This document shows positions 4,062 through 52,212 of a stretch of 64,000 nt of DNA, piece by piece. The position numbers and the translations under genes were made by a program. This DNA is from Gammaproteobacteria bacterium. Lineage in GTDB: Bacteria; Pseudomonadota; Gammaproteobacteria; SZUA-152. Numbering within the stretch: position 1 is the stretch's first letter; each line of letters begins with the position of its first letter. The notes under the pieces are model-generated. The model was not told the DNA's origin. It ran no database searches and saw only the letters and a program-made list of their open reading frames with translations. The stretch is taken from positions 32,334 to 96,333 of the forward strand of contig JAVVEP010000009.1 in NCBI GenBank assembly GCA_032250735.1. Reading direction: 5' to 3'.

Positions 4062-4091
4062 ACGCGGATACCGGAAATTTGTTACCGACGC

Positions 4092-6788: not shown

Positions 6789-7076
6789 GTGTCTCTCAGT
6801 CGGTACAGCTAGCCCGGCCCTATAGGCTGGGGCCCGTCGGATTTTGGGAAGCAATCGCTAATCTATCAGATATTTCGCGCCAAGATCTTGCATACGCCAC
6901 GACAAGGCGTTATTAGTCTTGCATATCAATAGCTTATCAATTTTCCAGCATTCCCACTCCCTGATCGCTGTCGGCATTTATTGCCCGAAATGTGAAGTTT
7001 TCACCTTTCTTGCCGCTACTAGTCTGGAAGCAGGCTTCAGGCAAAAAATGACAATCGAAACAGGAATTTAGCGTAG

Positions 7077-9591: not shown

Positions 9592-9607
9592 ATCAAGGCA
9601 GTAAATA

Positions 9608-11248: not shown

Positions 11249-11253
11249 TCGAA

Positions 11254-11946: not shown

Positions 11947-12008
11947 TCGTTACACAAGCACATACAACACATGTTTTATCACCTTAATTAGAAGTAATCA
12001 TAAACACT

Positions 12009-14360: not shown

Positions 14361-14462
14361 ACTAGTATGGCAAGCGGAACATTCACTTGCATATTTAACG
14401 AGCTCTAGCAAAGTCACGCAATAGCTTGACCCAGCCTGGTCGAAAATACGATCATTTACCCC

Positions 14463-35092: not shown

Positions 35093-35827
35093 TTAATCCG
35101 CGGTTGAAACGGTGTCCTCTGCGGGGCCTGCCACCAGCAACACCGTGATGTTATCCGCACCACCATTATCCAGTGACTTCTGAATCAGCAGGTCAGTTTT
35201 CTGCTTTTCATTGAGTTCCAGACCCAGAATTTCGGCAATCTCCGCATCGGAAACCTCACCCGTCAGGCCATCACTGCATAACAGCAACTGTTGTCCCTGA
35301 CACAGCCTTCCCTGCACGCGGCCGACCTGCATGGTCTGCAAATCCGACATGCCGATGGCCTGGGTGATGTAATTGCGCTGCGGATGCACCCGCGCCTCGG
35401 CCAGTGTGATGCTGCCATCATCCACCAGCGCCTGCACCAGGGAATGATCCTTGGTGATCTGGGTCAATGCGGTGCCGTCCCAGAGATAGGCGCGGCTGTC
35501 GCCCACCCAGACGATTTCAAAGTTTTCCTGATCCATTTTCAGGGCGAGTGCGGTAGAGCCCATGCCCGGCTTTCCTTCACCCCGATCCGCCGCCTTGCGT
35601 ACGGCATGGTGCGCCTGTACCAGGGCATCCGCCATCGGCCGCCCCGCACGAATTTCGGCGCACACGCACTCCACCACGATGCGGCTGGCGATCTCCCCGC
35701 CCTCATGGCCACCCATACCATCGGCCAGCACACCAAAGTTATACTCAGTATCGATGCAATAGGCATCTTCATTGTGCTGCCTCACATTACCGACGTGAGT
35801 CAGATGACCGCAATTCCTGAATGCCAT
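35093..35827 (-). CDS. PP2C-family Ser/Thr protein phosphatase
   Basis: HVGNVRQHNEDA, LADGMGGHEGGEIAS metal-binding motifs, DNITVLLV C-terminal motif. Confidence 0.88.
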   Translation of the reverse strand: MAFRNCGHLTHVGNVRQHNEDAYCIDTEYNFGVLADGMGGHEGGEIASRIVVECVCAEIRAGRPMADALVQAHHAVRKAADRGEGKPGMGSTALALKMDQENFEIVWVGDSRAYLWDGTALTQITKDHSLVQALVDDGSITLAEARVHPQRNYITQAIGMSDLQTMQVGRVQGRLCQGQQLLLCSDGLTGEVSDAEIAEILGLELNEKQKTDLLIQKSLDNGGADNITVLLVAGPAEDTVSTAD

Positions 35828-35875: not shown

Positions 35876-37966
35876 TCAGGGCCGATCGAACAACCGATAG
35901 GCCTGACTGTCAATAAACACCTCCACTAACAGTGGATCAATCTTGCCGTGCGCGGCCTCATGCTTGAGGAGATCCAGCGCCTTGTCGACACTGAGGCTCC
36001 GTTTGTAGGGCCGATCCCCCGCCGTTAAGGCATCAAAAATATCGGCCACAGTCATCACCCTCGCCGGGATCGGAATCTCGTCCCCCTTCAGGCCCTGCGG
36101 ATAACCGCTGCCATCCAGCTTTTCGTGATGGGCGTGGGCAATATCCGCCACCGCGGCCAGCGATCCCGTCCAGGGAATATGGCTCAGGAAGGAAAAGGTA
36201 TGACTGACGTGTGACTGAATATCCAGCCGCTCATCGGGTGTCAGACTGCCGCGGGCCAGGGTCAACGCCTCAAACTCCGCCGTATTGAGCAAAGCCACAG
36301 CCTCGCCCTGTTCACCGGGAAATACGAAATCGGCGACCGCCTGTAGTTCGCCGTTGACCTGATCATCAATCACCGACGGTTCATTGGCGTGTCTGATGAT
36401 CGCCATGAAACGTTGCAGGCGTCCCGCCTCCAGTTTCAATCGCGCCTCCACCGCGCCCCGGTGCCGCCTGAACTCGGCCGGCGACAGCTCACTGTGCTGA
36501 TAAACCAGTTCGCGATAGGCCTGCCGCTCCAGACTCGCCCGCGCATAACGGAATCTTTCCTGCAAAACGTCCAGCTGCGAATGATACAGCTTTCGGGCCT
36601 TGATCAGCACATGTTCCCGCACCCCCACCTTGCCAAAGTCATGCAGCAGGGCCGCGTAGCGCAGTTCCCGGATTTGCTCCAGGCTAAAGCGGATATCACG
36701 CAGCGCCTGATGCTGGCTACCATCCACCGCCTGCGCCAGGCGCTGGGAATATTCCGCCACCCGAAACGAATGCCCCGCCGTGGCGGGATCGCGTTCCTCA
36801 ATGGCGTGTACCGAGGCCGTTACAAAACCCTCGAACAGCTGTTCAATATCTTCGTAGAGGCCAAAATTCTTGAGCGCGACCGCGACTTGCGCGCCGATGC
36901 CGGTCAGGATCTGCAGGTCTTCCTGGTCAAATGAATGCGTCTGGCGATGGGTGTCGATCTGGATCAAACCGATGACCTCGGCCTCCACCAGCAAGGGCAC
37001 GCACATCACGCTACGCAGCCCCAGCTGCGAGATAGACTCTTGCCCCTTAAAGCGCTGATCATCCATCACATCGGTGGAAAGAATACTGCGCCGCTGTCCG
37101 ACCACCTCGTCAACGATGACCTCGGACAGCACCAGCACCGTGTTCTCCGCGCCGGGCGTGCGGGTCGAGGCGGCCGCCGGATGAAACCCGGCCACCCCCT
37201 CGCCACGCCTGTCGCGCAGCACCACAAAGGCCCGTTCTGCGGTGGGGAAGATGTCAAAAATCACCGCCATGATCCTGGCAAACAGGGCCTCCCGGCTGCT
37301 CTCCGTACCCAGCCCAATACTGACCTGCACCATGGCGCGCAGGCGTCGCAGCAGCTGGCTGTTGCTCTCGGTGGTATCGGTCTGCGCGATATGCAGCTGT
37401 TCCATCACCTCGGAGACATCCAGCACGGCGCTGATCTCCGGTGAGGTCATTTCGGGGGCGCGAAACAGCATCGAGACATCTGCCGCCCTCTCACCGTCTG
37501 CATTGGCGGGAGTGAGGGAGAAATCAAAAAACTCCTCATTGCGCCCGATCTCGGAGGGATAGTCGGAGGAATAACCTGAGGAACGCTCCGAGGAACCCGG
37601 CGCCTGCGCCACGGCAGCGGGACGAAAACGTAGATAGACCCCGCCGACCTGAATATTGCTGCCATCACGCAACACATAGGGGGTACCGGGGGTCAGCCGA
37701 AAGGCATTCAGAAACGTGCCATTGGTCGAGTGCGTATCTTCCAGATAAAACCGACCATTGCTCTGAAATATCCGCGCGTGGTACCGGCTGACCCGGCTAT
37801 CCGACAGGCCGATGCTGTCTTCGGGCAGACTGAAATCCTCGTCATTGCGACCGATGAGGGTTTCCGCCGCCAGCGTGAAATACCGCTGTGCCGGGGCGCC
37901 ACCGCGCACCTCCAGGTAGGCCGATGCCGGTCGTCGGGGTACCGCGTCGGTCATGTGTGTCATCAT
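35876..37966 (-). CDS. FHA-GAF-HD-GYP multidomain protein (putative phosphothreonine-regulated c-di-GMP phosphodiesterase)
   Basis: N-terminal FHA (RVSRYHARI...DTHSTNGTFLN), central GAF, C-terminal HD-GYP (ALLHDFGKV, HHEKLDGSGYPQG). Confidence 0.8.
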   Translation of the reverse strand: MMTHMTDAVPRRPASAYLEVRGGAPAQRYFTLAAETLIGRNDEDFSLPEDSIGLSDSRVSRYHARIFQSNGRFYLEDTHSTNGTFLNAFRLTPGTPYVLRDGSNIQVGGVYLRFRPAAVAQAPGSSERSSGYSSDYPSEIGRNEEFFDFSLTPANADGERAADVSMLFRAPEMTSPEISAVLDVSEVMEQLHIAQTDTTESNSQLLRRLRAMVQVSIGLGTESSREALFARIMAVIFDIFPTAERAFVVLRDRRGEGVAGFHPAAASTRTPGAENTVLVLSEVIVDEVVGQRRSILSTDVMDDQRFKGQESISQLGLRSVMCVPLLVEAEVIGLIQIDTHRQTHSFDQEDLQILTGIGAQVAVALKNFGLYEDIEQLFEGFVTASVHAIEERDPATAGHSFRVAEYSQRLAQAVDGSQHQALRDIRFSLEQIRELRYAALLHDFGKVGVREHVLIKARKLYHSQLDVLQERFRYARASLERQAYRELVYQHSELSPAEFRRHRGAVEARLKLEAGRLQRFMAIIRHANEPSVIDDQVNGELQAVADFVFPGEQGEAVALLNTAEFEALTLARGSLTPDERLDIQSHVSHTFSFLSHIPWTGSLAAVADIAHAHHEKLDGSGYPQGLKGDEIPIPARVMTVADIFDALTAGDRPYKRSLSVDKALDLLKHEAAHGKIDPLLVEVFIDSQAYRLFDRP

Positions 37967-38503: not shown

Positions 38504-38998
38504 GTGGATAACAACACTTTAAAGGTTCCGAAAAAACTCCGCCCGGTCACCCTCTGGGTTCATCCGGAGGGTCGCGTGATTGGCGCGATCTATCTGCGCA
38601 CGCAAAGCCCGCACCATGCCGGCAGCGAACAGCCACTGGAGGCACTGAATCTGTGTCAGAGTTTTCTGGTCTTTAATCGTGACGAGGCACCCGAGTTGCG
38701 ATTTTATAACATCAAATCGGTGACCCGCGTTGAATATGAGGCCACCGAGGAGGACCAGCAGGCTACCAAAACCAATCCCATGCGTTGCCACTTGCAGTTA
38801 ATGGATGGCGCCTATATCGCCGGCACGATACGCGAATCACTGCCACCGAATCATGCCCGCCTGCTGGACTACCTGAATCGTGCGGATGAAACCTTCATCA
38901 AGATTCATATAGATGACGGACTGATCTACCTCGTCAATAAATCCTACATCAACCATGTCCAGGTCGATCAGCTCGGTGATGACGAGGGAGAGGGCTAG
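38504..38998 (+). CDS. Hypothetical 164-aa protein, first gene of the kinase / PilT-like operon arm
   Basis: Clean ORF 57 nt upstream of the kinase gene. No confident motif. A PilZ-like region (DGAYIAG) is speculative. Confidence 0.45.
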   Translation: MDNNTLKVPKKLRPVTLWVHPEGRVIGAIYLRTQSPHHAGSEQPLEALNLCQSFLVFNRDEAPELRFYNIKSVTRVEYEATEEDQQATKTNPMRCHLQLMDGAYIAGTIRESLPPNHARLLDYLNRADETFIKIHIDDGLIYLVNKSYINHVQVDQLGDDEGEG

Positions 38999-39055: not shown

Positions 39056-41575
39056 GTGTCGGTCCGGCCACGGTTGCCGCGCATGAGCCTGTTATCGGGA
39101 TTTCAGGCCGGTCGGGCAATCAACACCCTGCTCGCCGACGATGCCGGCGCCAGCGCGGAAGGCAAGCGCGCCCTGTACCGGCTCAAGCAGATCGGCGAGC
39201 CGGCCATTCCCCGGCTGATTGAGGCCCTCGGCAGTCCACAAAACACCGCCACCCTGGAGCAGTTGCTGATCGGCTTTGTGCGCAACAGCACCCTGCACGC
39301 CTTTGTCGTCGGCCTGAGCGCGGGCGACCAACGCATCGTGGATGGGGTAACCCGTATCCTCAAGCGCTCGAAGGAGTTCAACCCCAACGACCTACTCCCC
39401 TATTTCAGTCAGCCCATTGGCGAGGCCGAGGTCTCCAAGACGGCCCTGGGCGAGATACTCACCAGCCACGCCGAGCGCATCAACCCCACGACCCTGCTGG
39501 GCCTGCTGGATCACGTCGACAGCAAGGTGCGCCCCATGCTGTATCGATTGCTGGACACCATCGCCACCGAGGCCCTGGTGCCGGACCTCATCCAGCGCCT
39601 CGACAGCCCGCAGACCCTGGTGCGCACCCACCTGCTCAATCTGCTGGCCCGTTTCGATACCGCGGCCAGTCGCGAGGGACTGGTAAAGGGGCTCGGCGAT
39701 AGCAATAAGTCCGTGCGTCAGGCGGCCCTCAATGGGCTGGCCACGCTGCAGGCGACGGAACATGTGGCGGACATCTGCCAGCTATTGAGCGACCCCGACC
39801 TCACGGTGCAGTCGGCCGCCATCGAGACCCTGGCCAAGATTCAGTCGCCGGACACGGTCAAACACCTGATCACGGTGCTGCAGGATGAATCGGAATACGT
39901 GCGCCGCGCCGCGGTGGAGGTACTCAACGAGGTCGGTGACCAGAATGCGGTGAAAGACCTGCTCAACGCGCTGCGTGACGTGGACTGGTGGGTGAAGGTG
40001 CGGGCCGCCGATGCCCTGGGGGCAATCGGCGGACCCAAGGTTTTCGATGCGGTGCTGGCCCTGATCAAGGACAAGGACGAATTTCTGCGCCGCACCGCGG
40101 TGGAGATTCTGAACACCGGCAAAGACCCGCGCGCCCTGGACCGCCTCATCGAGGCCCTGCGCGACGAAGACTGGTGGGTGCGAGAGCGGGCGGTGGACGC
40201 CCTCGCCGCCATTGGTGACGCCCGCGCCGTGCCGCACCTGATCACCATGCTGGAGGAAAATCCCGAGGCCGGCCAGGTGGTAATCCGCGCCCTCGCCACG
40301 CTGGGCGATCGGCAGGCGATCAATCCCCTGCTCCGCCAGCTCGACAAGGCCGACAACACGCTGCGCAAAGAGGCGCTGAAGGCGCTGGAGAGTCTCACCG
40401 ATGACACCTCCGCACAGGCGGTGCAGGAGGCCGTGACCCAGCTCATCCATACCCGGGGCGACGAGGTCGGCAGCGCCGCCGACGAGACGGTGCGCAGTCT
40501 GATTCAGCGTTTTGGCGACCGCGCCAGCCCTGCCTCCCGTGGCGCGTCCGCCGTCGCGCCACCGGTCGCCCGCCCGTCGACGGAGGTGATGGATCTGCCC
40601 ACCCAGGCCTTCGACAGCCGCGCGCCCCAGCCGGACAGCTCGGGGCAAACCCAGTCCATGCCGCTCGATGCCACCAGGGCGACCGACAGTGAAACCACGC
40701 CACTCACCCACTATCTTGACCCCTCGCGACTGGTGCCCAATACGATCCTGGCGGAACGCTATCACGTGATCCGCAAGATTGGCGAGGGCGCCTTTGGCGT
40801 CGTGTGGCTGGTGGAAGACGTGATGGTGGGTGATGAATTCATCCTCAAGTTCCTCAATCCCCAGTTTGCCGCCGACCAGAACATGATCGAGCGTTTCATG
40901 CACGAGCTGCGCTACGCCCGCAAGATCACCCACGAAAACATCATCCGCATCTACGACCTGGTCACCGTGGGCGATTCCTACGCGATTTCCATGGAATACT
41001 TTCCCAGCCACTCGCTGGCGGACGAGCTGCGGGAGCACAAAACACGGCACACCACCTTTGATCTGCCGCGCGGCATCCACGTGATTTCCTGCATCTGCCG
41101 CGGTATGGCCCAGGCCCAGGCCCAGGCGGTGGTGCACCGTGACCTGAAACCCGCCAACATCCTCATCGACGAGAACGACGAGCTGAAGATCGTGGATTTC
41201 GGTCTGGCCGCCGCCGCCCGCAAGGCGGATTCCCGGCTCACCAAGAGCGGCATACTGGTGGGCACCCCGACCTACATGGCGCCCGAACAGGTGCGGGGAC
41301 GCACCATCGATTCGCGTACCGATATCTACACCCTGGGGATCATCATGTATGAAATGTTCGCCGGCCAGGCGCCGTACACCGGCGACGAGTCCATGGCGAT
41401 CCTGTTTCAGCACGTGGAAGGCAAGGCCATCCCGCCCCGTGAGATCAATGCCGACATTCCGCCCGCGCTGGAACAGGTGATCATCAAGGCCATGGCCGTC
41501 GACCCCGAACAGCGTTTTCAAACCTTCGACGCGCTGCGCCTGCAACTGGAAACCATCTGCAAGGATGCATGCTAA
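39056..41575 (+). CDS. Hanks-type Ser/Thr protein kinase with an N-terminal HEAT / PBS-lyase repeat array
   Basis: About 450 aa of HEAT-like repeats (DWWVKVRAADALGAIG, DWWVRERAVDALAAIG). C-terminal kinase: GEGAFGVVW, ILK (VAIK-type), HRDLKPANIL, DFGLAA, GTPTYMAPE. Confidence 0.88.
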   Translation: MSVRPRLPRMSLLSGFQAGRAINTLLADDAGASAEGKRALYRLKQIGEPAIPRLIEALGSPQNTATLEQLLIGFVRNSTLHAFVVGLSAGDQRIVDGVTRILKRSKEFNPNDLLPYFSQPIGEAEVSKTALGEILTSHAERINPTTLLGLLDHVDSKVRPMLYRLLDTIATEALVPDLIQRLDSPQTLVRTHLLNLLARFDTAASREGLVKGLGDSNKSVRQAALNGLATLQATEHVADICQLLSDPDLTVQSAAIETLAKIQSPDTVKHLITVLQDESEYVRRAAVEVLNEVGDQNAVKDLLNALRDVDWWVKVRAADALGAIGGPKVFDAVLALIKDKDEFLRRTAVEILNTGKDPRALDRLIEALRDEDWWVRERAVDALAAIGDARAVPHLITMLEENPEAGQVVIRALATLGDRQAINPLLRQLDKADNTLRKEALKALESLTDDTSAQAVQEAVTQLIHTRGDEVGSAADETVRSLIQRFGDRASPASRGASAVAPPVARPSTEVMDLPTQAFDSRAPQPDSSGQTQSMPLDATRATDSETTPLTHYLDPSRLVPNTILAERYHVIRKIGEGAFGVVWLVEDVMVGDEFILKFLNPQFAADQNMIERFMHELRYARKITHENIIRIYDLVTVGDSYAISMEYFPSHSLADELREHKTRHTTFDLPRGIHVISCICRGMAQAQAQAVVHRDLKPANILIDENDELKIVDFGLAAAARKADSRLTKSGILVGTPTYMAPEQVRGRTIDSRTDIYTLGIIMYEMFAGQAPYTGDESMAILFQHVEGKAIPPREINADIPPALEQVIIKAMAVDPEQRFQTFDALRLQLETICKDAC

Positions 41576-42669
41576 TGGCCAGAATTGACGCCTTTTTGAA
41601 GCTCGGCCGTGAACAGGGTTGCACCGATATCCACTTCGCAGTGGGCATGCCGCCGCTGCTGCGCAGCATGGGCGAGCTGCTGCCCATCAAGTATCGCGAA
41701 CTCTCCGAACAGGAGCTGGCGAGTCTGATCGATGACATCATCGACCCGCAACAGAGGGCGCAGTTCGAGAACGGCAAGGACATCGATTTTGCCTACCAGA
41801 GCCATGAGGTCGGGCGCTTTCGGGTCAGCCTGTTTCGTAAAACCAGCGGCATCGGTGCGGCCTTTCGACTGGTCAACACCGACATCCCCAGTCTGGACGA
41901 TCTGGGCATGCCGCCGGCGGTGGCCAAATTTATTGACACCCATCAGGGCCTGGTGCTGGTCACCGGCGCCACCGGCACCGGCAAGTCCACCACCCTCGCC
42001 TCGATGCTGGACCTGCTAAACCGCACCCGGCGCCTGAACATCATTACCCTGGAAGACCCCATCGAGCACATCCACCACAGCCAGAAATCGCTGGTGGTGC
42101 AACGGGAGATCGGCACCCATGTGAACAGCTTTGCCAACGGTCTGAGAGCGGCGCTGCGCGAGGACCCCGACGTGATCCTGGTCGGCGAGCTACGCGACCC
42201 CGAGACCATCCTGATGGCGATGACCGCCGCCGAGACCGGCCACCTGGTACTGGGGACCCTGCACACCACCTCCGCCACCAAAACCATTGACCGGATTATC
42301 GATGCCACACCGACCGCGCAAAAGGCCCAGGCGAGTAACTTTCTCGCCCAGCACCTGCGCGGCGTGATCAGCCAGAAACTGGTCAAGAGCCCCGACGGGC
42401 GCAGCCGCAAGGCCATCGTCGAGGTGTTTATCAATACCCCCGCGATCGCCAATCTCATCAATACCGGCAAGATCTTCCAGATCCCCTCGATCCTGCAGAC
42501 CGGGCGCGACAAGGGCATGCAGACCATGGATCAGGCCCTGCTGGAGGCGGTGCAGAACAAGACCATCGATCCCGATGAGGCCTATCTGCACGCCACCGAC
42601 AAACAGCAATTCCAGCGCTTCGTGACCAACCCCGAGCTGCTGCCCCAGGTCAACCTGGCGATCAGCTGA
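41569..42669 (+). CDS. PilT/PilU-family type IV pilus retraction ATPase, paralog 1
   Basis: Walker A GATGTGKSTT, Asp box, TIEDPIE, Walker B DVILVGELRD, His box, AIANLI motif. The start overlaps the kinase stop by 7 nt. Confidence 0.85.
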   Translation: MLMARIDAFLKLGREQGCTDIHFAVGMPPLLRSMGELLPIKYRELSEQELASLIDDIIDPQQRAQFENGKDIDFAYQSHEVGRFRVSLFRKTSGIGAAFRLVNTDIPSLDDLGMPPAVAKFIDTHQGLVLVTGATGTGKSTTLASMLDLLNRTRRLNIITLEDPIEHIHHSQKSLVVQREIGTHVNSFANGLRAALREDPDVILVGELRDPETILMAMTAAETGHLVLGTLHTTSATKTIDRIIDATPTAQKAQASNFLAQHLRGVISQKLVKSPDGRSRKAIVEVFINTPAIANLINTGKIFQIPSILQTGRDKGMQTMDQALLEAVQNKTIDPDEAYLHATDKQQFQRFVTNPELLPQVNLAIS

Positions 42670-42671
42670 GC

Positions 42672-43760
42672 ATGAGCCGCGTCGACGCCTTTCTGGAGCT
42701 GCTGGTCAAACAGTCCGGCTCCGACCTGCACCTGGTTTCAGGCAATCCCCCGCGGATACGCCTGTACGGCGAGATCCACCCCATCAAATACCGCGAACTG
42801 ACCGAGAGCGAAACCGAAGACCTGCTGTTCGAGATCATGCCGCAACGGGTCAAAACGGTGTTGGCCGAAAAGGGCGGGGCCGATTTTTCCTACCAGCTGC
42901 CCGATGTGGCCCGTTTTCGCGTCAATGTGTTTCGCCACCTCGGCGGCATTGGCGCGGTGTTCCGGGCCATCCCCAACCAGATCACGCCCCTGGAGGAGCT
43001 GCGCATGCCGGCGGTGCTGAAGACCCTGGCCCGCCAGCGCAAGGGGCTGATTCTGGTGGCCGGCCCCACCGGCTCGGGCAAATCCACCACCCTCGCGGCG
43101 ATCATCGACTTCATCAATCGGGAGCGCAAAGGCCACATCATCACCATCGAAGACCCGGTGGAACACCTGCACAGCAACAAGACCTGCCTGATGAGCCAGC
43201 GGGAGCTGGGCGATCACACCGAGGGCTTCGCCCAGGCGCTGCGTTCCGCCCTGCGCGAGGACCCCGACGTGATCCTGGTGGGAGAAATGCGCGACCTGGA
43301 GACCATCAGCCTGGCCGTGACCGCCGCCGAGATGGGTATCCTGATCCTCGCGACCCTGCACACCAATGGCGCCGCCGCCGCCATCGACCGGATCATCAAC
43401 GTCTTCCCGCCGGGCGAAGAACCCTATATCCGCACCATGCTGTCCACCTCGCTGTGCGGGGTGATCTCCCAGCAACTGGTAAAAACGGCCGATAATCGTG
43501 GCAGACTTGCAGCGGTAGAGACTCTGATTAATAATTCCGCTGCGTCGAACATGATCCGCGAGGGGAAAACCGAGCAGCTGGAGAACGTGATTCAGGCCGG
43601 GGCGCTACAGGGGATGCAGACGATCGACACCGCGCTACGCCGCCTGCTCGATGAAAAATTGATTACCGGCGAAGAGGCCTACCGAAAGGCCCGCCAGAAA
43701 TCAAACTTTGAACAATATAGGGAACACGATGAATCACTCAAGCCGATCACCCGCCAATGA
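42672..43760 (+). CDS. PilT/PilU-family type IV pilus retraction ATPase, paralog 2
   Basis: GPTGSGKSTT, TIEDPVE, DVILVGEMRDLETI, ASNMIREGK. 2 nt after the previous stop. Confidence 0.85.
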   Translation: MSRVDAFLELLVKQSGSDLHLVSGNPPRIRLYGEIHPIKYRELTESETEDLLFEIMPQRVKTVLAEKGGADFSYQLPDVARFRVNVFRHLGGIGAVFRAIPNQITPLEELRMPAVLKTLARQRKGLILVAGPTGSGKSTTLAAIIDFINRERKGHIITIEDPVEHLHSNKTCLMSQRELGDHTEGFAQALRSALREDPDVILVGEMRDLETISLAVTAAEMGILILATLHTNGAAAAIDRIINVFPPGEEPYIRTMLSTSLCGVISQQLVKTADNRGRLAAVETLINNSAASNMIREGKTEQLENVIQAGALQGMQTIDTALRRLLDEKLITGEEAYRKARQKSNFEQYREHDESLKPITRQ

Positions 43761-44541
43761 CAGACGGACCCATGCACCGGTCTCCCTCCACAGCGGGCGG
43801 GATGCGGCCTCTCCCGGCGTGTCGCCGGAAGCGGGACAGGTCGGTGACGTCGCCGCCCGCGCCCCTGAGGCGCGGCGTCGACTGATCCTCACCCTGGAAG
43901 GCAAGATCATCCGCGAAATTCCCGTTACCGGCCGTCCCATCAGCATCGGGCGCAAACATGACAACGACATTCAGCTGAATGACCTGACCCTGAGCGGACG
44001 GCATGCGCAGATCTCCAGCGTGCCCGATTATGTCTTTATCGAAGACCTGGGCAGCACCAACGGCACCCTGGTCAACGGCAATCACGTGAAGAAGGTGGCG
44101 CTGGAACACGGCGACATTGTCCAGATCGGCCACCACCAGTTGACCTATATGCAGGAGTCGGAGAACAGCTACGAACCCACCATGTTCATCAAGGCCGAAT
44201 TCGACGAGACGCAGTTCATCTATGCCGACGACATCGCCACCCACGTGGTCAAGGGACTGCCACTGGGCGGATTCCGGACCGTGGGTGGCCCCGGCACAAA
44301 GTGTGTGATGGAGCTGCGTAAAACCTACAACACGATCGGCTTTCAGGGTAAGCGCGTGGCACTGATCACCCGTGGCACCGGCGGCTATTACATCACCTCC
44401 GTTGCCGGCACCCGCAGTCGTAGAACCTCCGACATACCCCTGCTGAACAATGCCGTTATCAACACCGAACTGACGCTGCTAAAGGAAAACGACATTATCA
44501 ACATCGCCGGCTTTGAGGTGCAGTTTTATTTTTTAAACTAG
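43708..44541 (+). CDS. FHA-domain protein (N-terminal FHA, uncharacterised C-terminal domain), paralog A
   Basis: FHA: ISIGRKHDNDIQLNDLTLSGRHAQI...EDLGSTNGTLVNG. The C-terminal domain is shared with the next ORF. The start is ambiguous (43708 or 43729) and overlaps the ATPase end. Confidence 0.75.
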   Translation: MNNIGNTMNHSSRSPANDRRTHAPVSLHSGRDAASPGVSPEAGQVGDVAARAPEARRRLILTLEGKIIREIPVTGRPISIGRKHDNDIQLNDLTLSGRHAQISSVPDYVFIEDLGSTNGTLVNGNHVKKVALEHGDIVQIGHHQLTYMQESENSYEPTMFIKAEFDETQFIYADDIATHVVKGLPLGGFRTVGGPGTKCVMELRKTYNTIGFQGKRVALITRGTGGYYITSVAGTRSRRTSDIPLLNNAVINTELTLLKENDIINIAGFEVQFYFLN

Positions 44542-44677
44542 CTGCCCGAGTTAAACGCCGAGTCCAGTCTGTGAGCCCAGAGTTGCAACCAGAACCAGCC
44601 TCAAACCCGACTCACCGAAATTCAACCATGCCACATAAGAAAGTGTGGCGAGCTGAACCTCGCAAGGATTTGCACGC

Positions 44678-45355
44678 ATGAACAGTAAACTCATCCTGAC
44701 CCTGGATGGCGAAATCATCAATGAATATGCGCTCGATCGCGCACATCTCAGCATTGGCCGGAAACACGGTAATGACATCCAGCTCAATGACCTGACCGTC
44801 AGTGGCCGTCATGCCATGATCAGTTCATCACTGCCGGAGCAGGTGTTTGCCGAAGACCTGGGCAGCACCAACGGCACCCTGGTCAATGGCAATCACATCA
44901 AAAAGACCTCGCTGCAACACGGCGACATCATTCAGGTGGGACACCACCAGTTCACGTTTCTGAATGAGGGCGAGGCCCGCTATGAGCCCACCATGTTTAT
45001 CAAGGCCGAGTTGGATGATACGCAGATGGTATTGCCCGACTGGGAGTCCCGCGCCGAGACCATCAAGGGTCAGCCGCTGGCGGGTCTACGAACCTTGAAC
45101 GGTCCCCTTGCCCGTACCGTGATGGAACTGCGTAAACCGTTCAGTACCCTCGGCTTCCAGGGCCACAAACTGGCGCTGATCAGCCGGGGCTTAAACAGCT
45201 ATTCCATCAGCCCGGTGCATGCCTCCAAGCATCGCCGCGGCACAGACACCCCCTTACTCAACGGCGAACCTCTTGGTGCATTGCCCGTCGAGCTCAAGCC
45301 CGACGACACCATCAGCATCGCCGGCTTTGAAGTGGCGTTTTATTACATCCATTAG
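44678..45355 (+). CDS. FHA-domain protein, paralog B (same architecture as 43708-44541)
   Basis: FHA: LSIGRKHGNDIQLNDLTVSGRHAMI...EDLGSTNGTLVNG. Conserved C-terminus TMFIKAE.D.TQ...MELRK...GFQG...ISIAGFEV.FY. Confidence 0.78.
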   Translation: MNSKLILTLDGEIINEYALDRAHLSIGRKHGNDIQLNDLTVSGRHAMISSSLPEQVFAEDLGSTNGTLVNGNHIKKTSLQHGDIIQVGHHQFTFLNEGEARYEPTMFIKAELDDTQMVLPDWESRAETIKGQPLAGLRTLNGPLARTVMELRKPFSTLGFQGHKLALISRGLNSYSISPVHASKHRRGTDTPLLNGEPLGALPVELKPDDTISIAGFEVAFYYIH

Positions 45356-45472: not shown

Positions 45473-46933
45473 CTATTTTGCGTACGGATTGGCACCCGCC
45501 GGCAGGGTCTGTTGCGCGGAGGATTTCTGCATTGCCGGCACCTTGTTCGCCGTCACAATTTCTATCGAGCGCAGCGACTCCAGCTCCGCGATACTGGCCT
45601 CGAGCGACACCGCCTCGGTAATACCTTGTTGCAGGAATTCGGATAACTGCGGATACAGCGCCACCGCCTCATCAACACGCGCATCGCTGCCCGGTCGGTA
45701 GGCGCCAACGCTAATGAGATCCCGGTGCTGACGGTAGGTTGAATACCACTGCTTGAACTGACGCGTGGCATCCTGGTGTTCCGGCGTGGTGATCTCCGTC
45801 ATGGCGCGACTGATGGAGGCCTCGACATCAATCGCAGGATAGTGGCCGGAATCCGCCAGCTCACGTGACAACACGATATGCCCATCGAGAATCGCACGCG
45901 CCGCATCCGCAATCGGGTCCTGCTGATCATCCCCCTCCGTCAACACGGTATAGAATGCCGTGATCGAACCACCGCCCGTATCACCGTTACCGGCCCGCTC
46001 CACCAGCTGCGGAATTTTCGCAAACACAGAAGGTGGATAACCTTTAGTAGCCGGTGGCTCGCCAATCGCCAGTGCCACCTCACGCTGTGCCTGGGCATAG
46101 CGCGTCAGGGAGTCCATCAACAAAAGTACATTGAGTCCCTGGTCCCGGAAATATTCCGCGATACGTGTCGCCAGGGTGGCGCCATGCAGGCGTAAAACCG
46201 GGGCGTCATCCGCCGGTGATGCCACCACCACGGCGCGCGACATGCCTTCCTCGCCCAGAATGTTTTCAATGAATTCCTTGACTTCGCGACCGCGTTCACC
46301 GATCAGCCCAACCACGATCACATCCGCCGTGGTGTATTTTGTCATCATGCCAAGCAGCACGCTTTTACCCACACCACTACCCGCAAACAGACCCATGCGT
46401 TGACCGCGCCCCACACTCAACAGGGCATTGATCGCACGGATACCTACATCCAGTTTCTCGCGAATCGGCTGCCGCGCCAGCGGATTGATGGCACGCCCCG
46501 CCAACGGCACACGGTCACTGGTGCTGATGGCCCCCTTCCCGTCCAGAGGATTGCCCGCGCCGTCCAGCACGCGCCCCAATAGTTCAGGGCCGACGGCGAC
46601 ATCATATACTTCCTTGCTGGGCACAACGCGGGCGTTTGGCAGAATGCCGTGCATGCGCCCGACGGGCATTAAATAGAGTTTTTCACCGGAAAACCCGACC
46701 ACCTCTGCCTCGATGTCCGTACCGTCAGGCCCCTCCACCAGGCAGCGCGAACCCACAGGGGCATGGCAACCAACGGCCTCCAGGGTGAGGCCGACCATCC
46801 GCGTCAGATGGCCTTCGACGATCAGCTTTGGACGATCAACCAGCCGCTCCACCGCGGCAAGACGTTTGGCCCACAGCCCACTGCGGTTGACCGCACTGAG
46901 CGTGTCATCACTGTCATGGATGGAGTCGCCCAT
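45473..46933 (-). CDS. fliI: Flagellum-specific ATPase FliI
   Basis: Walker A GSGVGKS, T3SS ATPase fold. The ORF is open to 46975; the start is set at the ATG at 46933 to avoid running into fliH. Confidence 0.9.
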
Positions 46934-46940
46934 CGCTCGG

Positions 46941-47624
46941 TTATTCGTCGTCCGCCGGCGCGGCAGGTGTCGCATCGCGGCCCCGCGCGTCGGCCAGCAA
47001 CGGCGCGACCACCGCAGTCAGTCGCTTTTCCAGCGTCGCCTCAATCTGCGACACCCTGGTGAGAATTCTGCAATCACCACGCATCAGGCTGGGGTCTTCC
47101 ACCAACGACCAGTTTTGGTCGGCGCCTGACTGCGCGATCGACTCACGCATCAGCAGCACATCATCCGGGTGCAGACAGACTTTGACATCCTGTGAACCGA
47201 TGGGGAGCACCGCCAGGGCCTCGCGAACCACACCGACGACCTGGCCTGGGTCCGCCTTGAGCTCACGCCGCACCAACTGTCTGGCAATAGACAGCGCAAG
47301 GCTTACCAGCTGCTGTTCAACCGCTTCATCCAGCCGATCAAGCGGATGACTGAGTGAATCGAGCATCGTGGTTAATAATTTTTCCTTGGTGGCGATTTCC
47401 GCCTTGCCGGATGCCATGCCTTCCTGCCGGCCCTTCTGAAAACCGGCATCGTATGCTTCCTTGTAGGCCTGCTTCTGAATACGTTCGATCTGCTCTGCCG
47501 TCATCAGGCCCGGCGCCTTGCCATGACGGGCATCCTTTACGGCGGCGGAGACATCTTCAACGATCGGCAGATCCCAGCATTCAAAGCCGTGCGCAGCATC
47601 GCGGGGTATTACCCTGGAGGTCAT
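46941..47624 (-). CDS. fliH: Flagellar assembly protein FliH
   Basis: Position between fliG and fliI. FliH-like coiled-coil plus C-terminal domain. Confidence 0.8.
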
Positions 47625-48637
47625 TACACGTACTCCTCGCCACCCGAACCACCGAGCGCAATATCACCGGCATCCGCCAGACGGCGGGCAACGGAAAGTA
47701 TTTCTTTCTGTGCGCCCTCCACTTCACTCAGGCGCACCGGGCCCTTCGCCTCAAGGTCGTCACGCAGCATTTCGGCCGCGCGTTTTGACATGTTGCGGAA
47801 AATCTTCTCCTTCAGTTCATCATCCGTTCCCTTGAGGGCAAGCACCAGCGACTCGGATGAGATCTCCCGCAGAATGGTCTGGATATCACGGTCATCGACG
47901 GCATTGAGGTTGTCAAACACAAACATCAGGTCCTGAATATTCTGACCCAGGTCGGCATCGATCTCCTTCACGCTGTCCATCAGTTCACCTTCCAGCGCAC
48001 TATCGATGAAGTTGAGAATATTTGCCGCTGCCTTGATGCCGCCAACGCTGGACGATTTGACATTGTTCTTGCCGGTAAACTGTTTCTCCATAATGTCATT
48101 CAGCTCATTCAGCGCAGCTGGCTGGATGCCATCCAGCGTGGCGATACGCATCAGCACGTCAACGCGAATCTTTTCGGGAAACAGCGACAGCACTTCGGCG
48201 GACTGGTCGGGCTCAAGATAGGACAGCACAATGGCAATGATCTGCGGATGCTCCAGACGAATAATCTCGGCAACCGCCCGCGAGTCCATCCACTTGAGGG
48301 TTTCCAGACCTTTGGTATTTCCACCCTGTAAAATCCGATCGATGATATTATCCGCCTTGTCATCGCCCAACGCCTTTCTCAGCACCGTGCGCACATATTC
48401 GTCCGTGCCCAGGCCCAGACCGGTCTCTTCCAGGACCGTGGTGCAGAATTCGTTCAGCACCGACGTCACCTGGCCGCGGGTTACATTCTTTAGCTGCGCC
48501 ATCGCTGCACCCAGGGTTTGCACCTCCTTGGGGTCCATGTGTTTCAACACTTCCGAGGCCGACGCCTCACCGAGACTCATTAACAGTATCGCGGCACGAT
48601 CAACACCACGTACCTCATTATTTTTTTGATCAGCCAT
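47624..48637 (-). CDS. fliG: Flagellar motor switch protein FliG
   Basis: AAILLMSLGE..., torque-generating C-terminal domain. Canonical position. Confidence 0.9.
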   Translation of the reverse strand: MADQKNNEVRGVDRAAILLMSLGEASASEVLKHMDPKEVQTLGAAMAQLKNVTRGQVTSVLNEFCTTVLEETGLGLGTDEYVRTVLRKALGDDKADNIIDRILQGGNTKGLETLKWMDSRAVAEIIRLEHPQIIAIVLSYLEPDQSAEVLSLFPEKIRVDVLMRIATLDGIQPAALNELNDIMEKQFTGKNNVKSSSVGGIKAAANILNFIDSALEGELMDSVKEIDADLGQNIQDLMFVFDNLNAVDDRDIQTILREISSESLVLALKGTDDELKEKIFRNMSKRAAEMLRDDLEAKGPVRLSEVEGAQKEILSVARRLADAGDIALGGSGGEEYV

Positions 48638-50273
48638 CCGATGCCACCCAGTTTTTAACAACCTGCGCCACTAGTTTTGGATCCTGCTCAACGGCCGCGT
48701 TTGCCGTTAGCAGATTTTGCTCATAACTGCCCGGCGCCTTGATGGCGAGGTTTTCGGGTTTCGCACCCAGCGTCAGCGTATCGTCAGACATCGCCCGTTC
48801 ATTATTACCAAATGCAGCGACCGGCATCATCTTGGACTGGGTGGCCAGCTGCCTCAGGATAGGCTTGAGCACACCGAACAATAACAACATCACCAACAAT
48901 GCACCCAGGGATTTCTTGGCAACATCCTGCGCCCAGCCCTGCTCCCAGAGAGGCACTTCCGGTAGCTCTTCCGGCGTAACAGGCATGGTGAAGGATGAAT
49001 TCATGATGTTCAGGGTATCACCACGCTGGGCATTAAAGCCGACCGCCTCCTTGACCAGATTGCTCAGTCGATCCAGCTCTTCCGGCGTGCGCTGTGTCCG
49101 GGTCAACGAACCATCGGCCGCCGTTATCAGGGAATCATCCACCACCACGGCGACTGAGAGGCGGCGGAGACGCCCCATGGAAAAACGGGTATGGCTGATC
49201 GTCTTGTCCAGTTCGTAGTTTTTGATTTCCTTGCGATGCGAGTTGCTGGAACCATTTGCGCCGCCGTTAACGCCACCCTCGACACCCCCATTGACAAGCT
49301 CTGGTGCGGTCGCCGCGCCCGGAGGCTGGTTGGACAAGGCACCAGGAATCCCGCCATTCATGCTGCCACCCGATGACTGCTCGACCAGGGTCTGATTACT
49401 CCGCAGGGCCGGGGTATCCGGGTTAAAGCTCTCCTGGGTCTGCTCACTCATGGTGAAATCGATATCCGCGGTCACCTGTGCGCGAACGGACTCCGAACCC
49501 AGAATCGGTGTGAGCAGGCGCTCGATGCGATCGATATAACTGTTTTCCAGCCGGCTGGCATACTCAAACTGTGCGCCGGTCTTTGCCATCTTCTGGGTCG
49601 ATTCACCACGCGACAGCAGGTTGCCTCGTTGGTCCACGATAGTGACGTTCGAGATATTCATATCCGCAACACTGGATGAGACCATGTGCATAATCGATGA
49701 CACCTGCCCTTCATCCAGGTTTCTTCCCGGAAACAGGTTGACCACCACGGAGGCACTCGCATTCTTTCGATTGCGCACAAACACTGACTGCTGTGGCACC
49801 GCCAGATGCACTCTGGCATTTTTGACATTGCTCAGGCTGGAGATGGTCCGCGCCAGTTCAATCTCCAGCGCGCGCTGGTAACGCGCCTTTTCCATAAATT
49901 GCGAAACGCCAAAATTATTTTTTTCGTCCAGCGCGTCAAAACCGGCACTCACGCCTTTTGGCAGTCCCATCGACGCCAGCTTGATTCGTGCATCATGAAT
50001 ACTGCTGGTGGGCACCAGAATCGCCCCTGTCGCCTGATCCAGTTTTGCCTCAAACCCGTTCTGCTGAAGTGCATCCAGCACCGTGCTGACATCCTGCTCT
50101 TCAAGCGCGCCGTACAGCACGCCAAAACTGGGCGCCCATGACCAGAGCACAATCGTAACGCCCAGGGCGACGCTGGCGGCAAGGCCCAGCATGATCCCGA
50201 TCTGTCGGAAGGCATGCAGGCCACTCAAACCAGTGAACCCCGCGGATACTTCTTCGGCTTTTACCAGTGCCAT
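48630..50273 (-). CDS. fliF: Flagellar M-ring protein FliF
   Basis: 547 aa, two TM helices, secretin/YscJ-like domain. Canonical position. Confidence 0.9.
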   Translation of the reverse strand: MALVKAEEVSAGFTGLSGLHAFRQIGIMLGLAASVALGVTIVLWSWAPSFGVLYGALEEQDVSTVLDALQQNGFEAKLDQATGAILVPTSSIHDARIKLASMGLPKGVSAGFDALDEKNNFGVSQFMEKARYQRALEIELARTISSLSNVKNARVHLAVPQQSVFVRNRKNASASVVVNLFPGRNLDEGQVSSIMHMVSSSVADMNISNVTIVDQRGNLLSRGESTQKMAKTGAQFEYASRLENSYIDRIERLLTPILGSESVRAQVTADIDFTMSEQTQESFNPDTPALRSNQTLVEQSSGGSMNGGIPGALSNQPPGAATAPELVNGGVEGGVNGGANGSSNSHRKEIKNYELDKTISHTRFSMGRLRRLSVAVVVDDSLITAADGSLTRTQRTPEELDRLSNLVKEAVGFNAQRGDTLNIMNSSFTMPVTPEELPEVPLWEQGWAQDVAKKSLGALLVMLLLFGVLKPILRQLATQSKMMPVAAFGNNERAMSDDTLTLGAKPENLAIKAPGSYEQNLLTANAAVEQDPKLVAQVVKNWVASDG

Positions 50274-50328
50274 AATTGACCTTTACCCATCATTAATGAT
50301 TACGAATTTGACAACATTACCGGCTACG

Positions 50329-50649
50329 CTAAACCTGCATTGCCATGATTTCCTTGTAGGCGCCCAACAGTTTATTTCTAACCTGAAGCGTCGCCTCAAA
50401 GGCGATGCCCGATTTCTGTTTCGCGATCATCACCTCGGCAAGGCTGACGGCTGGATCACCCATCACAAAGGCATCGCCTAGCCGCCCGGCCTCCTGCTGG
50501 ACTTCATTGACACTGTTGATGCTCTTCATCAGCATTGAACTAAAGTCACTGCCGGCGGGGCCACTCTCCTGTAGTTGCGGCGTACCCTGCGCCGCCGCGG
50601 CCATGGCCCGCATCTGGGTGATCAATTGACTGGTATCGATTTCATTCAT
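50329..50649 (-). CDS. fliE: Flagellar hook-basal body protein FliE
   Basis: 106 aa with FliE C-terminal motif (AEVMIAKQKSGIAFEATLQVRNKL). Confidence 0.88.
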   Translation of the reverse strand: MNEIDTSQLITQMRAMAAAAQGTPQLQESGPAGSDFSSMLMKSINSVNEVQQEAGRLGDAFVMGDPAVSLAEVMIAKQKSGIAFEATLQVRNKLLGAYKEIMAMQV

Positions 50650-50707
50650 CGTTGTTCTCCTACTTCAATATACAGGAAGCTGATTACCGCTTTTTACTAA
50701 CAAGGCG

Positions 50708-50815
50708 CATGGAAAGGATACCCTTCAATCAAGACCGTCAGCAGCAGGGATGCTGCTGTCGAGCGTACACGGATGTATTCTCAGCGCGTCTTGATTGAAG
50801 GGTATCCTTTTCATG
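50708..50815. mobile_element. MITE-like element, copy 2 (same 27-bp terminal inverted repeats as copy 1, 1 mismatch in one repeat; internal region in opposite orientation)
   Basis: Intergenic between fleR and fliE. The flanks also resemble those of copy 1 for about 15 bp. Confidence 0.7.
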
Positions 50816-50850
50816 TGATGCAATAATAATTCATTACAAAAAAGCAAAAT

Positions 50851-52212
50851 CTATGCCGTTTCCGCCCCATAACGCCCGGGAACGGTCATGCCGATTTCCC
50901 GCATTCGTGCCAGTTTGTAACGCAGGGTCCGCTGGCTGATCCCCAGCTTGTCGGCGGCCGTTTGCCGATTGCCGTGATCGGCCTGCAGCACGGCCAGAAT
51001 TCTGTTGTATTCATGATTCTTCATTTCATTGCCCAGCGTGCTTGGCTCGCCGTTACCCATCACATCCAGGCCAGCCTCATCGGCCGACAGGTTTTCAAAC
51101 TGCACATCACTGGCGGTGATCTTGTCGCCGTTACTCAGTATCAGGGCGCGCTGCACGACGTTGTCCAGCTCACGCACATTGCCGGGCCATTGATGCGCCA
51201 TCAGGCGCTCACACGCCGCGGTGGTTAGCTCCGGCAACGGTGCCTGGCTGGACTGAAAGTGTTTCTCGATAAGCTTCCTGCTCAGCGGCAGGATGTCACC
51301 GGTACGCTCACGCAAGGCGGGAATCTGGATGGGGAATACATTCAGGCGGTAAAACAGATCTTCGCGAAAACGGCCTTCGTTGACCTCGGTGCGCATCAGG
51401 CGGTTGGACGTCGCCAGTACGCGGACATCCAGCGCCATGGTTTTCTGTCCACCCAGGCGTTCCACCTCCCGCTCCTGCAGGACCCGCAGCAGCTTTGCCT
51501 GCAGGGCCGCATCCATTTCCGAGATCTCGTCCAGCAATAACGTGCCGCCCTGGGCCAGTTCGAACTTTCCCGGGCAGGCCTTGTAGGCCCCGGTGAAGGC
51601 GCCCTTCTCGTAGCCGAACAACGTGGCTTCCAGCATGTTCTCGGGGATCGCGGCACAGTTGATCGCGACAAAGGGTTTGTCCGCACGCGATGAATTGTTG
51701 TGAATGAATCGCGCCAGCACCTCTTTGCCGACGCCACTTTCACCGGTCAGCATGATGGTGGCATCACTCTCGGCCACCCGTCGTACCAGTTCCACCAGCT
51801 CCTTACTGCGCAGATCCTCGGCGACCATCGTGTCGGTCGCGATATTGCGTGTGCCGACATAGCGGCTCACCATGGTGGCCAGCACTTCGGCCTCGAAGGG
51901 TTTGCTCAGATAATCCACAGCACCATCGCGCATCGCCTCAACGGCCATCTGAATGGAACCATAGGCGGTCATTAACATCACCGGCAGATCCTGCCATTGC
52001 GCCTTGATCTGCTTCAGCAGCTCATGGCCATCCATGCCGGGCATCTGGATGTCGGTAATCACCATATCCACCATTTTCCGGCGGAGGATTTCCAGGGCCT
52101 CGACACCATCGTTCGCGGTCTCGGTGCCATAACCCGCCAGTGCCAGGGTATCGCACAGCGCGATCTGCAAATCCGCATCATCTTCAACCACGAGTATTAC
52201 TGCTTGAGTCAT
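50851..52212 (-). CDS. fleR: Sigma-54-dependent flagellar response regulator FleR/FlrC
   Basis: REC (ILVVEDDADL...DIQMPGMDG), AAA+ sigma-54 activator (GESGVGKE, GAFTGA-type ESELFGHEKGAFTGA), C-terminal HTH. Confidence 0.9.
   Translation of the reverse strand: MTQAVILVVEDDADLQIALCDTLALAGYGTETANDGVEALEILRRKMVDMVITDIQMPGMDGHELLKQIKAQWQDLPVMLMTAYGSIQMAVEAMRDGAVDYLSKPFEAEVLATMVSRYVGTRNIATDTMVAEDLRSKELVELVRRVAESDATIMLTGESGVGKEVLARFIHNNSSRADKPFVAINCAAIPENMLEATLFGYEKGAFTGAYKACPGKFELAQGGTLLLDEISEMDAALQAKLLRVLQEREVERLGGQKTMALDVRVLATSNRLMRTEVNEGRFREDLFYRLNVFPIQIPALRERTGDILPLSRKLIEKHFQSSQAPLPELTTAACERLMAHQWPGNVRELDNVVQRALILSNGDKITASDVQFENLSADEAGLDVMGNGEPSTLGNEMKNHEYNRILAVLQADHGNRQTAADKLGISQRTLRYKLARMREIGMTVPGRYGAETA

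Follow-up and report, generated by a model that had tools for sequence, protein, structure and literature searches.

Tandem FHA proteins of a kinase- and PilT-linked gene module join a canonical FHA domain to a second, degenerate one

RESULTS

Two adjacent plus-strand genes, here called FHA-A and FHA-B, lie in a 64,000-nucleotide (nt) stretch of gammaproteobacterial DNA (assembly GCA_032250735.1, contig JAVVEP010000009.1, positions 32,334 to 96,333 of the forward strand), which we refer to as the window. The encoded proteins are paralogs that begin with a canonical FHA domain, continue with a linker carrying two conserved threonines, and end in a divergent homolog of the FHA domain. We use the name psiFHA for this degenerate FHA-fold domain, which makes up the C-terminal ∼95 amino acids (aa) within a conserved C-terminal half of ∼125 aa. 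In our estimate, FHA-A and FHA-B are probably two-domain phospho-signaling adaptors with the arrangement FHA, conserved Thr linker, psiFHA. The features are collected in Table 1.

The C-terminal domain is a divergent FHA homolog

In single-sequence searches, the C-terminal half gave no Pfam match and no NCBIfam match, and neither a single sequence nor a narrow family profile retrieved a relative among the sequences of the PDB. The Pfam FHA hidden Markov model (HMM) gave no match to psiFHA in the window proteins, and only 3/28 relatives reached even an E value of 0.1. When a narrow psiFHA profile was compared with the N-terminal FHA domain (N-FHA) of the same proteins, the match was weak (P = 3e-4), although its register was plausible (ALIS / LLNG / D-I-I-x-I-A-G / F-x-F). 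The close family is too uniform for remote homology to be detected in this way, and only the widened family described below provided enough diversity.

With the broad psiFHA profile, hhalign aligned the whole domain to the N-FHA profile of the same proteins (97.4%, E = 9.2e-12, 83 columns); in this alignment, psiFHA lacks 13 residues after the Gly-Arg position. Searching PDB sequences with the psiFHA profile A4 (hmmsearch) gave whole-domain matches to the FHA domains of OdhI (6.3e-4) and GarA (1.7e-3), with E values ranging from 6.3e-4 to 4.6e-3. The AlphaFold2 model of the C-terminal half is all-beta, with a mean predicted local distance difference test score (pLDDT) of 72, a core at 80 to 90, and a disordered linker. 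Among the Foldseek matches listed for the psiFHA model against the PDB, 50/50 were FHA domains, 13 of them at an E value of ≤1e-3; the best were GarA/OdhI (E = 3.3e-5), with a target-normalized TM score (TMt) of up to 0.73. The predicted structure thus has the FHA-type beta-sandwich topology. No PilZ family appeared in Pfam scans at E values up to 10, and no PilZ structure was present among the Foldseek matches listed.

Taken together, the C-terminal ∼95 aa are a divergent FHA homolog. The original prediction, made from the sequence of the window without database searches, had been unable to assign this region to a family and had named alignment to a second FHA domain as an outcome contrary to that view. 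Such an alignment is what hhalign, the PDB profile search, and the predicted fold all provide, and the claim of an unassignable domain does not stand. The remaining elements of that prediction fared better. The C-terminal skeleton that it listed (TMFIKAE.D.TQ, MELRK, GFQG, ALI.RG, LLN, and ISIAGFEV.FY) does exist, and 76 relatives from PilT-linked modules conserve it. An N-terminal FHA domain is found by Pfam in both proteins, and the proposed tandem paralogy is borne out by pairwise alignment.

FHA-A and FHA-B are paralogs over their entire shared length

BLASTP aligned FHA-A with FHA-B from the first FHA strand through the last residue, with 126/222 identities (57%), 73% positives, 2 gaps, and an E value of 1e-91. 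The C-terminal halves alone are 49% identical, so the resemblance goes beyond composition.

The true start of FHA-A is probably the ATG at 43729 rather than the TTG at 43708, giving a protein of 270 aa. This ATG is preceded by GGGAA and corresponds to a Met conserved in 22/22 A-type orthologs. Starting there, FHA-A overlaps the 3′ end of the upstream PilTb gene by 32 nt. In the region where the FHA-A frame overlaps the 3′ end of PilTb (window positions 43708 to 43760), an NNIGN(K/T)M peptide precedes the conserved Met; this peptide is conserved only because it coincides with PilTb coding sequence in the other frame, which again makes ATG 43729 the probable start. Among the 22 A-type orthologs, the N-terminal tail of FHA-A is kept in length and variable in sequence, and FHA-B has no such tail. 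We infer that the tail may serve as a disordered phospho-acceptor. A 136-nt spacer (44542 to 44677) separates FHA-A from FHA-B; from the kinase gene onward, the other plus-strand junctions are overlapping or at most 3 nt apart.

Table 1. Features of FHA-A, FHA-B, and the adjoining genes in the window
Feature	Position in window	Strand	Basis and remarks
FHA-A, upstream paralog	43708..44541	+	Open reading frame list; 277 aa counted from mechanical TTG
FHA-A N-terminal tail, ∼50 aa	43729..43875	+	S/T/P/Q-rich; alignment of 22 A-type orthologs
FHA-A canonical FHA, aa 57-149	43876..44154	+	Pfam PF00498, E 1e-20; G81-R82, S96..H99, N118
FHA-A interdomain motif YEPTMFIKAEFDETQ, aa 155-169	44170..44214	+	Two conserved Thr; invariant columns in 76-sequence alignment
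FHA-A psiFHA, aa 182-277	44251..44538	+	Alignment with FHA-B psiFHA and wider family (A4)
FHA-B, downstream paralog, 225 aa	44678..45355	+	Open reading frame list; AAGGA ribosome-binding site 9 nt 5′ of ATG
FHA-B canonical FHA, aa 1-96	44678..44965	+	Pfam PF00498, E 7.6e-22; G27-R28, S42..H45, N65, T67
FHA-B interdomain motif YEPTMFIKAELDDTQ, aa 102-116	44981..45025	+	T105 and T115, candidate phospho-acceptors
FHA-B psiFHA, aa 130-225	45065..45352	+	G159-F160 in place of canonical G-R
PP2C-type Ser/Thr phosphatase	35093..35827	-	Pfam PP2C_2, 6.8e-13
FHA-GAF-HD-GYP, predicted cyclic di-GMP phosphodiesterase	35876..37966	-	Pfam FHA 3.5e-18, GAF, HD_5 1.2e-35
p164, 164 aa, first gene of plus-strand operon	38504..38998	+	15/15 orthologs match PF20660 DUF6812, best E 4.6e-7
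HEAT-repeat and Hanks-type Ser/Thr kinase, 839 aa	39056..41575	+	Pfam HEAT_2 4.6e-54, Pkinase 5.5e-52; kinase domain at aa ∼560-839
PilT-family ATPase a (PilTa)	41569..42669	+	TIGR01420, 421.8 bits versus cutoff of 319.1; syntenic in all loci
PilT-family ATPase b (PilTb)	42672..43760	+	TIGR01420, 446.6 bits versus cutoff of 319.1

An intact phosphothreonine pocket and a conserved threonine linker

The Pfam PF00498 match spans residues 78 to 141 of FHA-A and 25 to 88 of FHA-B, with scores of 74.3 and 78.0 bits, respectively, against a cutoff of 20.7. In FHA-B numbering, which is used from here on, G27, R28, S42, H45, N65, and T67 of N-FHA are identical in 76/76 relatives, and the phosphothreonine (pThr)-binding residues of the FHA-A N-FHA are invariant in 22/22 A-type sequences. 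When the full-length FHA-B model was searched with Foldseek, it matched the FHA domains of GarA and OdhI at ∼33% identity and a TMt of 0.82 to 0.91; every match in this search was to a single FHA and lay in the N-terminal domain, and no template with tandem FHA domains was retrieved. By its sequence, N-FHA is a canonical FHA domain that retains all of the pThr-contacting residues.

Outside the pocket of N-FHA, no stretch is as invariant as the linker that follows, which has the consensus Y-E-P-T105-M-F-[IV]-[KR]-A-E-x-D-E-T115-Q. T105, M106, F107, A110, and E111 are identical in 76/76 sequences, and position 115 is Thr in 73/76. A related motif of the wider family, [DE]FE[KR]TM[VI][LI], aligns with the T115 copy and has Thr in 60/75 sequences, while the T105 copy (the YEPTMFIKAE insert) is specific to the PilT-linked subfamily. 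Many FHA domains prefer an aliphatic residue at pT+3, and both T105 and T115 have one at this position. It is likely that the linker acts as both a kinase acceptor site and an FHA ligand.

The psiFHA pocket is degenerate

In canonical FHA domains, the segment after the conserved Gly-Arg holds the β3-β4 loop, β4, and the Ser/His-bearing β4-β5 loop, which bind phosphate. In psiFHA, this segment is 9 to 13 residues shorter. At the equivalent of the phosphate-binding Arg (F160 in FHA-B), 76/76 PilT-module relatives have Phe or Tyr, and position 169, the sole candidate for the Ser, is occupied by S, T, A, or N in the same set. No His equivalent was seen in psiFHA under either the hhalign or the HMMER alignment, and no Ser is conserved. 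The replacement of Arg by Phe or Tyr, combined with the shortened loops, makes canonical pThr binding by psiFHA unlikely; on sequence grounds, the domain very probably cannot bind pThr in the canonical manner. Members of the wider family have K, R, or H at the Arg position, and residual phospho-binding may be possible there. Invariant or conserved residues of psiFHA, namely R152, K153, R170, Y175, N195, and D210, would form a conserved surface.

Distribution and duplication

At least 150 clusters of ∼225-aa proteins make up the close family; all come from uncultured Gammaproteobacteria and are annotated as FHA only. A homolog (P0068) is also carried by Kaarinaea lacus, which is cultured. When 1.84 billion cluster representatives were searched exhaustively with an HMM, 505 proteins were retrieved at an E value of ≤1e-3, these wider-family members being cluster representatives at 50% identity. 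A few close relatives aside, wider-family proteins are 200 to 420 aa long and consist of an N-terminal Pfam FHA domain, a low-complexity linker that varies in length, and a C-terminal psiFHA of ∼90 aa. In three unrelated genomic contexts of the wider family (L056-L062), the gene directly follows a PP2C gene, in one case with a CHASE2-kinase gene upstream as well. All three lie opposite radA, and two also adjoin dnaB, rplI, rpsR, and possibly rpsF; this housekeeping-like position may hint at a core cellular role. One member of the wider family from outside the window, P0153 (309 aa), has a ClpP-like protease domain (PF00574, E = 2e-22) fused to psiFHA at its C terminus, indicating that the partners of psiFHA are not limited to canonical FHA domains. 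Judged from these sequences, the FHA-psiFHA architecture is a general partner of Hanks-type kinases and PP2C phosphatases that was recruited into a PilT operon in the lineage of the window.

Two copies, A followed by B, occur in 22 loci, namely the nearer relatives and the window. A further 32, more distant loci have a single FHA-psiFHA gene at the equivalent position of the module. One locus of the near clade (L014, 9692 to 10390) has only a B-type gene, directly after PilTb and 74% identical to FHA-B, which implies either that the A paralog was secondarily lost or that it arose after the L014 lineage split off. In neighbor-joining bootstraps, the A clade was monophyletic in 40/40 replicates, B plus L014 in 37/40, and A plus B plus L014 in 27/40. 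These values are consistent with a gene duplication basal to the nearer clade, after which A evolved faster and acquired its N-terminal tail, although support for that node is only moderate. The tandem duplication noted in the original prediction does not define the system; with 32 single-copy loci in the same module, it is a lineage-specific elaboration.

The FHA-psiFHA genes belong to a conserved kinase/PP2C/PilT module

To survey gene neighborhoods, one genome per species was used, yielding 53 loci in which gene order was mapped by tblastn and context was taken from the homologs. The loci derive from metagenome-assembled genomes labeled Ectothiorhodospiraceae, Chromatiales, Thiohalomonadales, Thioalkalispiraceae, or unclassified Gammaproteobacteria. 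In the 53 genome loci and in two additional loci (L001 and L002), genes for p164, the Ser/Thr kinase, PilTa, PilTb, and FHA-psiFHA lie on the same strand with short gaps. One or two FHA-psiFHA genes close this operon-like row, which is conserved within a single gammaproteobacterial lineage. The minus strand of the module carries PP2C and, in part of the loci, FHA-GAF-HD-GYP, with the order kept wherever the contig is long enough. The location directly 3′ of a PilT-like pair and a Ser/Thr kinase, noted in the original prediction, is thereby confirmed. Its suggestion of a pThr-dependent adaptor also fits this tightly conserved neighborhood and the fully conserved pThr-binding residues of N-FHA.

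The window PP2C is 68% identical to that of L001, and PP2C adjoins the module in most loci that extend far enough. FHA-GAF-HD-GYP, present in 25/53 genome loci and in the window and absent from L001, is transcribed divergently from the module and has intact HD and GYP motifs as well as a canonical FHA domain of its own; this suggests a second output, via cyclic di-GMP (c-di-GMP), that is read by another canonical FHA domain. Protein p164 has 28 invariant residues across 15 orthologs and, from inspection of its sequence, appears to consist of two DUF6812-like repeats; its comparison with the PDB gave chance-level matches only and no relative. A search of the linker of the HEAT-kinase for conserved Thr docking sites found a variable, gap-rich segment with no invariant Thr. 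PilTb was found in every locus covering its position and retains Walker A (GPTGSGKST), Walker B, and the His box; PilT catalytic motifs are conserved in 53 orthologs.

The upstream flank, with sbcB and pyruvate carboxylase genes, is common to the window and L001. The downstream flank differs between loci, with flagellar fliE-fliI genes in the window and ykuD and nqr genes in L001, and the flagellar neighborhood is thus incidental. By inspection of open reading frame translations, the minus strand of the window from 45473 to 52212 encodes fliI, fliH, fliG, fliF, fliE, and a probable sigma-54-type response regulator. Elsewhere in the window, a stretch at ∼4000 to 15600 has a low GC content (43 to 53% versus ∼60% elsewhere) and contains genes for two hybrid histidine kinases, a VWA-domain protein, a response-regulator-TPR protein, and a HATPase_c fragment. 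This stretch may be a horizontally acquired signaling island. A literature search combining PilT, FHA, kinase, PP2C, and HEAT found no paper describing the module, and neither the family nor the eight-gene module appears to have been described in the literature that could be searched.

DISCUSSION

A model for phospho-dependent adaptors

In the model that we favor, the HEAT-kinase would write pThr marks, PP2C would erase them, and the canonical N-FHA domains of FHA-A, FHA-B, and the HD-GYP protein would read them. Candidate marks are located on the kinase itself, at linker residues T105 and T115 (in the context E-x-T-M/Q-hydrophobic), or in the S/T-rich tail of FHA-A. A phosphorylated linker Thr would be bound by an N-FHA domain. 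T105 lies ∼10 residues past the FHA core, and the termini of the domain are opposite its binding loops, which makes binding in trans more likely for this residue; such binding could pair A with B or build head-to-tail chains, as in TIFA or Rv1747. T115 could reach the pocket in cis, which is sterically possible, to give a switch of the GarA/OdhI type. The psiFHA domain would offer a phospho-independent docking surface, most plausibly for the cotranscribed PilT-like ATPases. In this way, the adaptors would connect the activity of the kinase with the PilT-like motors, alongside the FHA-gated c-di-GMP branch of the HD-GYP protein. We regard this adaptor hypothesis as plausible, with binding to the ATPases inferred from synteny.

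Several points weigh against this model. The link to the PilT ATPases is drawn entirely from gene order. No PilT gene lies near the family member in any of the three wider-family contexts examined, which implies that psiFHA is not intrinsically PilT binding. In the full-length AlphaFold2 model, residues 106 to 111 of the linker form a beta-strand (pLDDT of only ∼63), and the motif might have a structural role instead of acting as a ligand. T105 and T115 are putative phosphorylation sites deduced from sequence. The resemblance of the linker to the GarA acceptor ETTSVFRAD amounts to 3 identities in a 9-mer, which carries no statistical weight and serves as a lead only. As for psiFHA, hhalign and HMMER place its gap differently, leaving the residue register relative to canonical FHA domains ambiguous, and the confidence of the structural models is moderate (mean pLDDT of 72 to 73).

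Other explanations differ from this model in what they make of psiFHA or of the gene neighborhood. That the C-terminal ∼125 aa form a new domain unrelated to known folds would agree with the lack of Pfam, NCBIfam, and PDB matches by single protein or narrow profile and with the mere 3/28 relatives at E = 0.1; given the broad-profile hhalign match (97.4%, E = 9.2e-12), the matches to OdhI/GarA (E = 6e-4), and a predicted fold that matches FHA exclusively, we consider it very improbable. A Phe or Tyr at the Arg equivalent in all 76 PilT-module members, the variation at position 169 (S, T, A, or N), the missing His equivalent, and a Ser/His-loop segment 9 to 13 residues shorter than in canonical domains also make it distinctly unlikely that both domains read pThr. 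On that account, a noncanonical psiFHA pocket (formed, e.g., by R152/K153/R170/N195) would turn the proteins into bivalent cross-linkers like FHA-1/FHA-2 of Rv1747. In its favor, psiFHA has several invariant basic residues and an invariant N195, HMMER aligns I-[ST]-R and L-N-G with S-R-R-H and L-N-G-T of OdhI, and K, R, or H occupies the Arg position in the wider family; Rv1747 shows that two FHA domains and a Thr linker can work jointly (PMC8339232).

The FHA-psiFHA proteins might instead be generic partners or substrates of the kinase and PP2C that act elsewhere, on the HD-GYP branch or a distant target, so that adjacency to PilT would reflect operon convenience. We judge this unlikely, though deserving of serious attention: the three wider-family contexts are in PP2C operons with or without a kinase, lack PilT, and lie beside radA/dnaB, and the ClpP-psiFHA fusion P0153 points the same way, whereas in the module the gene always directly follows PilTb, down to ∼45% identity to the window proteins. 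The PilT subfamily moreover has invariants of its own (the YEPTMFIKAE insert and the aromatic residue at 160), and FHA domains are fused to PilT/VirB11-like ATPases in class III CpaF. We give hardly any credence to the module being an anti-phage defense or secretion system with the FHA proteins as its sensors. The kinase domain does match PD-T4-6 and mad6 in PADLOC, and the PP2C weakly matches PDC-M21C, but these matches cover generic kinase and phosphatase catalytic domains only. FHA-psiFHA, p164, and HD-GYP have no PADLOC match, PilT has weak P-loop matches only, and no secretin, pilin, or platform genes lie beside the module, which occupies a stable site next to sbcB and the pyruvate carboxylase genes in the window and L001 rather than a variable island. 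With PADLOC returning generic kinase, PP2C, and P-loop matches only, the defense-system reading was rejected.

Returning to the adaptor model, a bolder version is possible, although we hold it with more doubt than confidence. FHA-linker-psiFHA proteins might constitute an undescribed and widespread proteobacterial class of kinase/PP2C-coupled switches, in which the linker is phosphorylated and read by the FHA domain of the same protein or of its paralog, while a pThr-blind psiFHA holds the client. Here, the client would be the PilT-like ATPase pair, which is not encoded with pilus genes. Such an arrangement would be a new form of control over a PilT-type motor, linked to both pThr and c-di-GMP.

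Significance and comparison with known systems

To our knowledge, FHA domains are the main known readers of Hanks-kinase signals in bacteria, and few of those outside Actinobacteria and type VI secretion systems (T6SSs) have an assigned role. The present family has no Pfam model (2025 copy), no NCBIfam model, and no member with a solved structure. In every context examined (53 module loci and three wider-family members), the gene lies beside PP2C, a kinase, or both. If the adaptor model is correct, the module would represent a tractable example of Ser/Thr phosphorylation controlling PilT motors and c-di-GMP turnover together. It would also supply a second, independent phospho-switch of the GarA or Rv1747 kind outside Actinobacteria. 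A domain model built from the psiFHA alignment could annotate the bare C-terminal halves of several hundred clusters.

GarA and OdhI are actinobacterial FHA regulators that are switched by PknG/PknB and target enzymes of the tricarboxylic acid cycle. Like FHA-A and FHA-B, they are small stand-alone FHA proteins, and they are the nearest solved structures for both N-FHA and psiFHA. A conserved E-x-T motif, an acceptor in GarA/OdhI and a putative one here, occurs in a flanking segment in both systems, VETTSVFRAD in GarA/OdhI (PMC8546545) and YEPTMFIKAE here, and the cognate kinase has a helical-repeat scaffold in both (TPR in PknG, HEAT here). The GarA/OdhI motif is N-terminal to the FHA domain, whereas the similar E-x-T-x-hydrophobic-hydrophobic-[KR]-A-[DE] string of the present proteins is C-terminal to it. 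The present proteins further differ in having a second, degenerate FHA domain, in their lineage, and in their likely targets, the PilT-like ATPases. Scores against the OdhI equivalog model NCBIfam NF041660 (54.1 and 53.0 bits) fall well below its cutoff of 200, with only the FHA core aligning.

The two FHA domains of Rv1747 from Mycobacterium tuberculosis both recognize pThr and are part of a module fused to an ABC transporter. The module comprises FHA-1, a linker with Thr acceptors (T152/T210) for a cognate Hanks kinase, and FHA-2 (PMC8339232). The likeness consists of two FHA folds and a Thr linker in one polypeptide, and the Rv1747 module controls an ATPase-driven machine. The second domain of FHA-A and FHA-B, unlike that of Rv1747, lacks the Arg and the loops, and the proteins are free-standing.

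In the T6SS, the PpkA/PppA/Fha1 (TagH-type) pathway comprises a Hanks kinase, a PP2C, and an FHA adaptor that are encoded together and gate an ATPase-powered machine. The window module shares the coencoded kinase, PP2C, and FHA adaptor. FHA-A and FHA-B score only 37.5 and 31.1 bits against TIGR03354 (VI_FHA; cutoff of 120.25), their C-terminal domain differs from that of the T6SS FHA protein, and the module contains no T6SS genes.

Two further systems link FHA folds to ATPases of related classes. EssC of type VII secretion has N-terminal tandem FHA folds without pThr-recognition residues (PMC4925161). As in the present case, tandem FHA beta-sandwiches occur together with a P-loop ATPase (PilT/FtsK class). 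Both EssC domains have degenerated, and one polypeptide joins them to the ATPase and a membrane segment; in FHA-A and FHA-B, the first domain remains fully canonical, and separate genes encode the ATPases. Class III CpaF of the Tad pilus consists of an N-terminal FHA domain, a disordered region, and a hexameric ATPase of the PilT/VirB11 family (PMC12019362), likewise pairing FHA with a PilT/VirB11-type ATPase. CpaF is a one-polypeptide fusion with a single FHA domain, while the module described here has separate genes, an added psiFHA, and ATPases of the PilT/PilU type (TIGR01420). The class III CpaF fusions indicate that the pairing of an FHA domain with a PilT/VirB11-type ATPase is used in nature.

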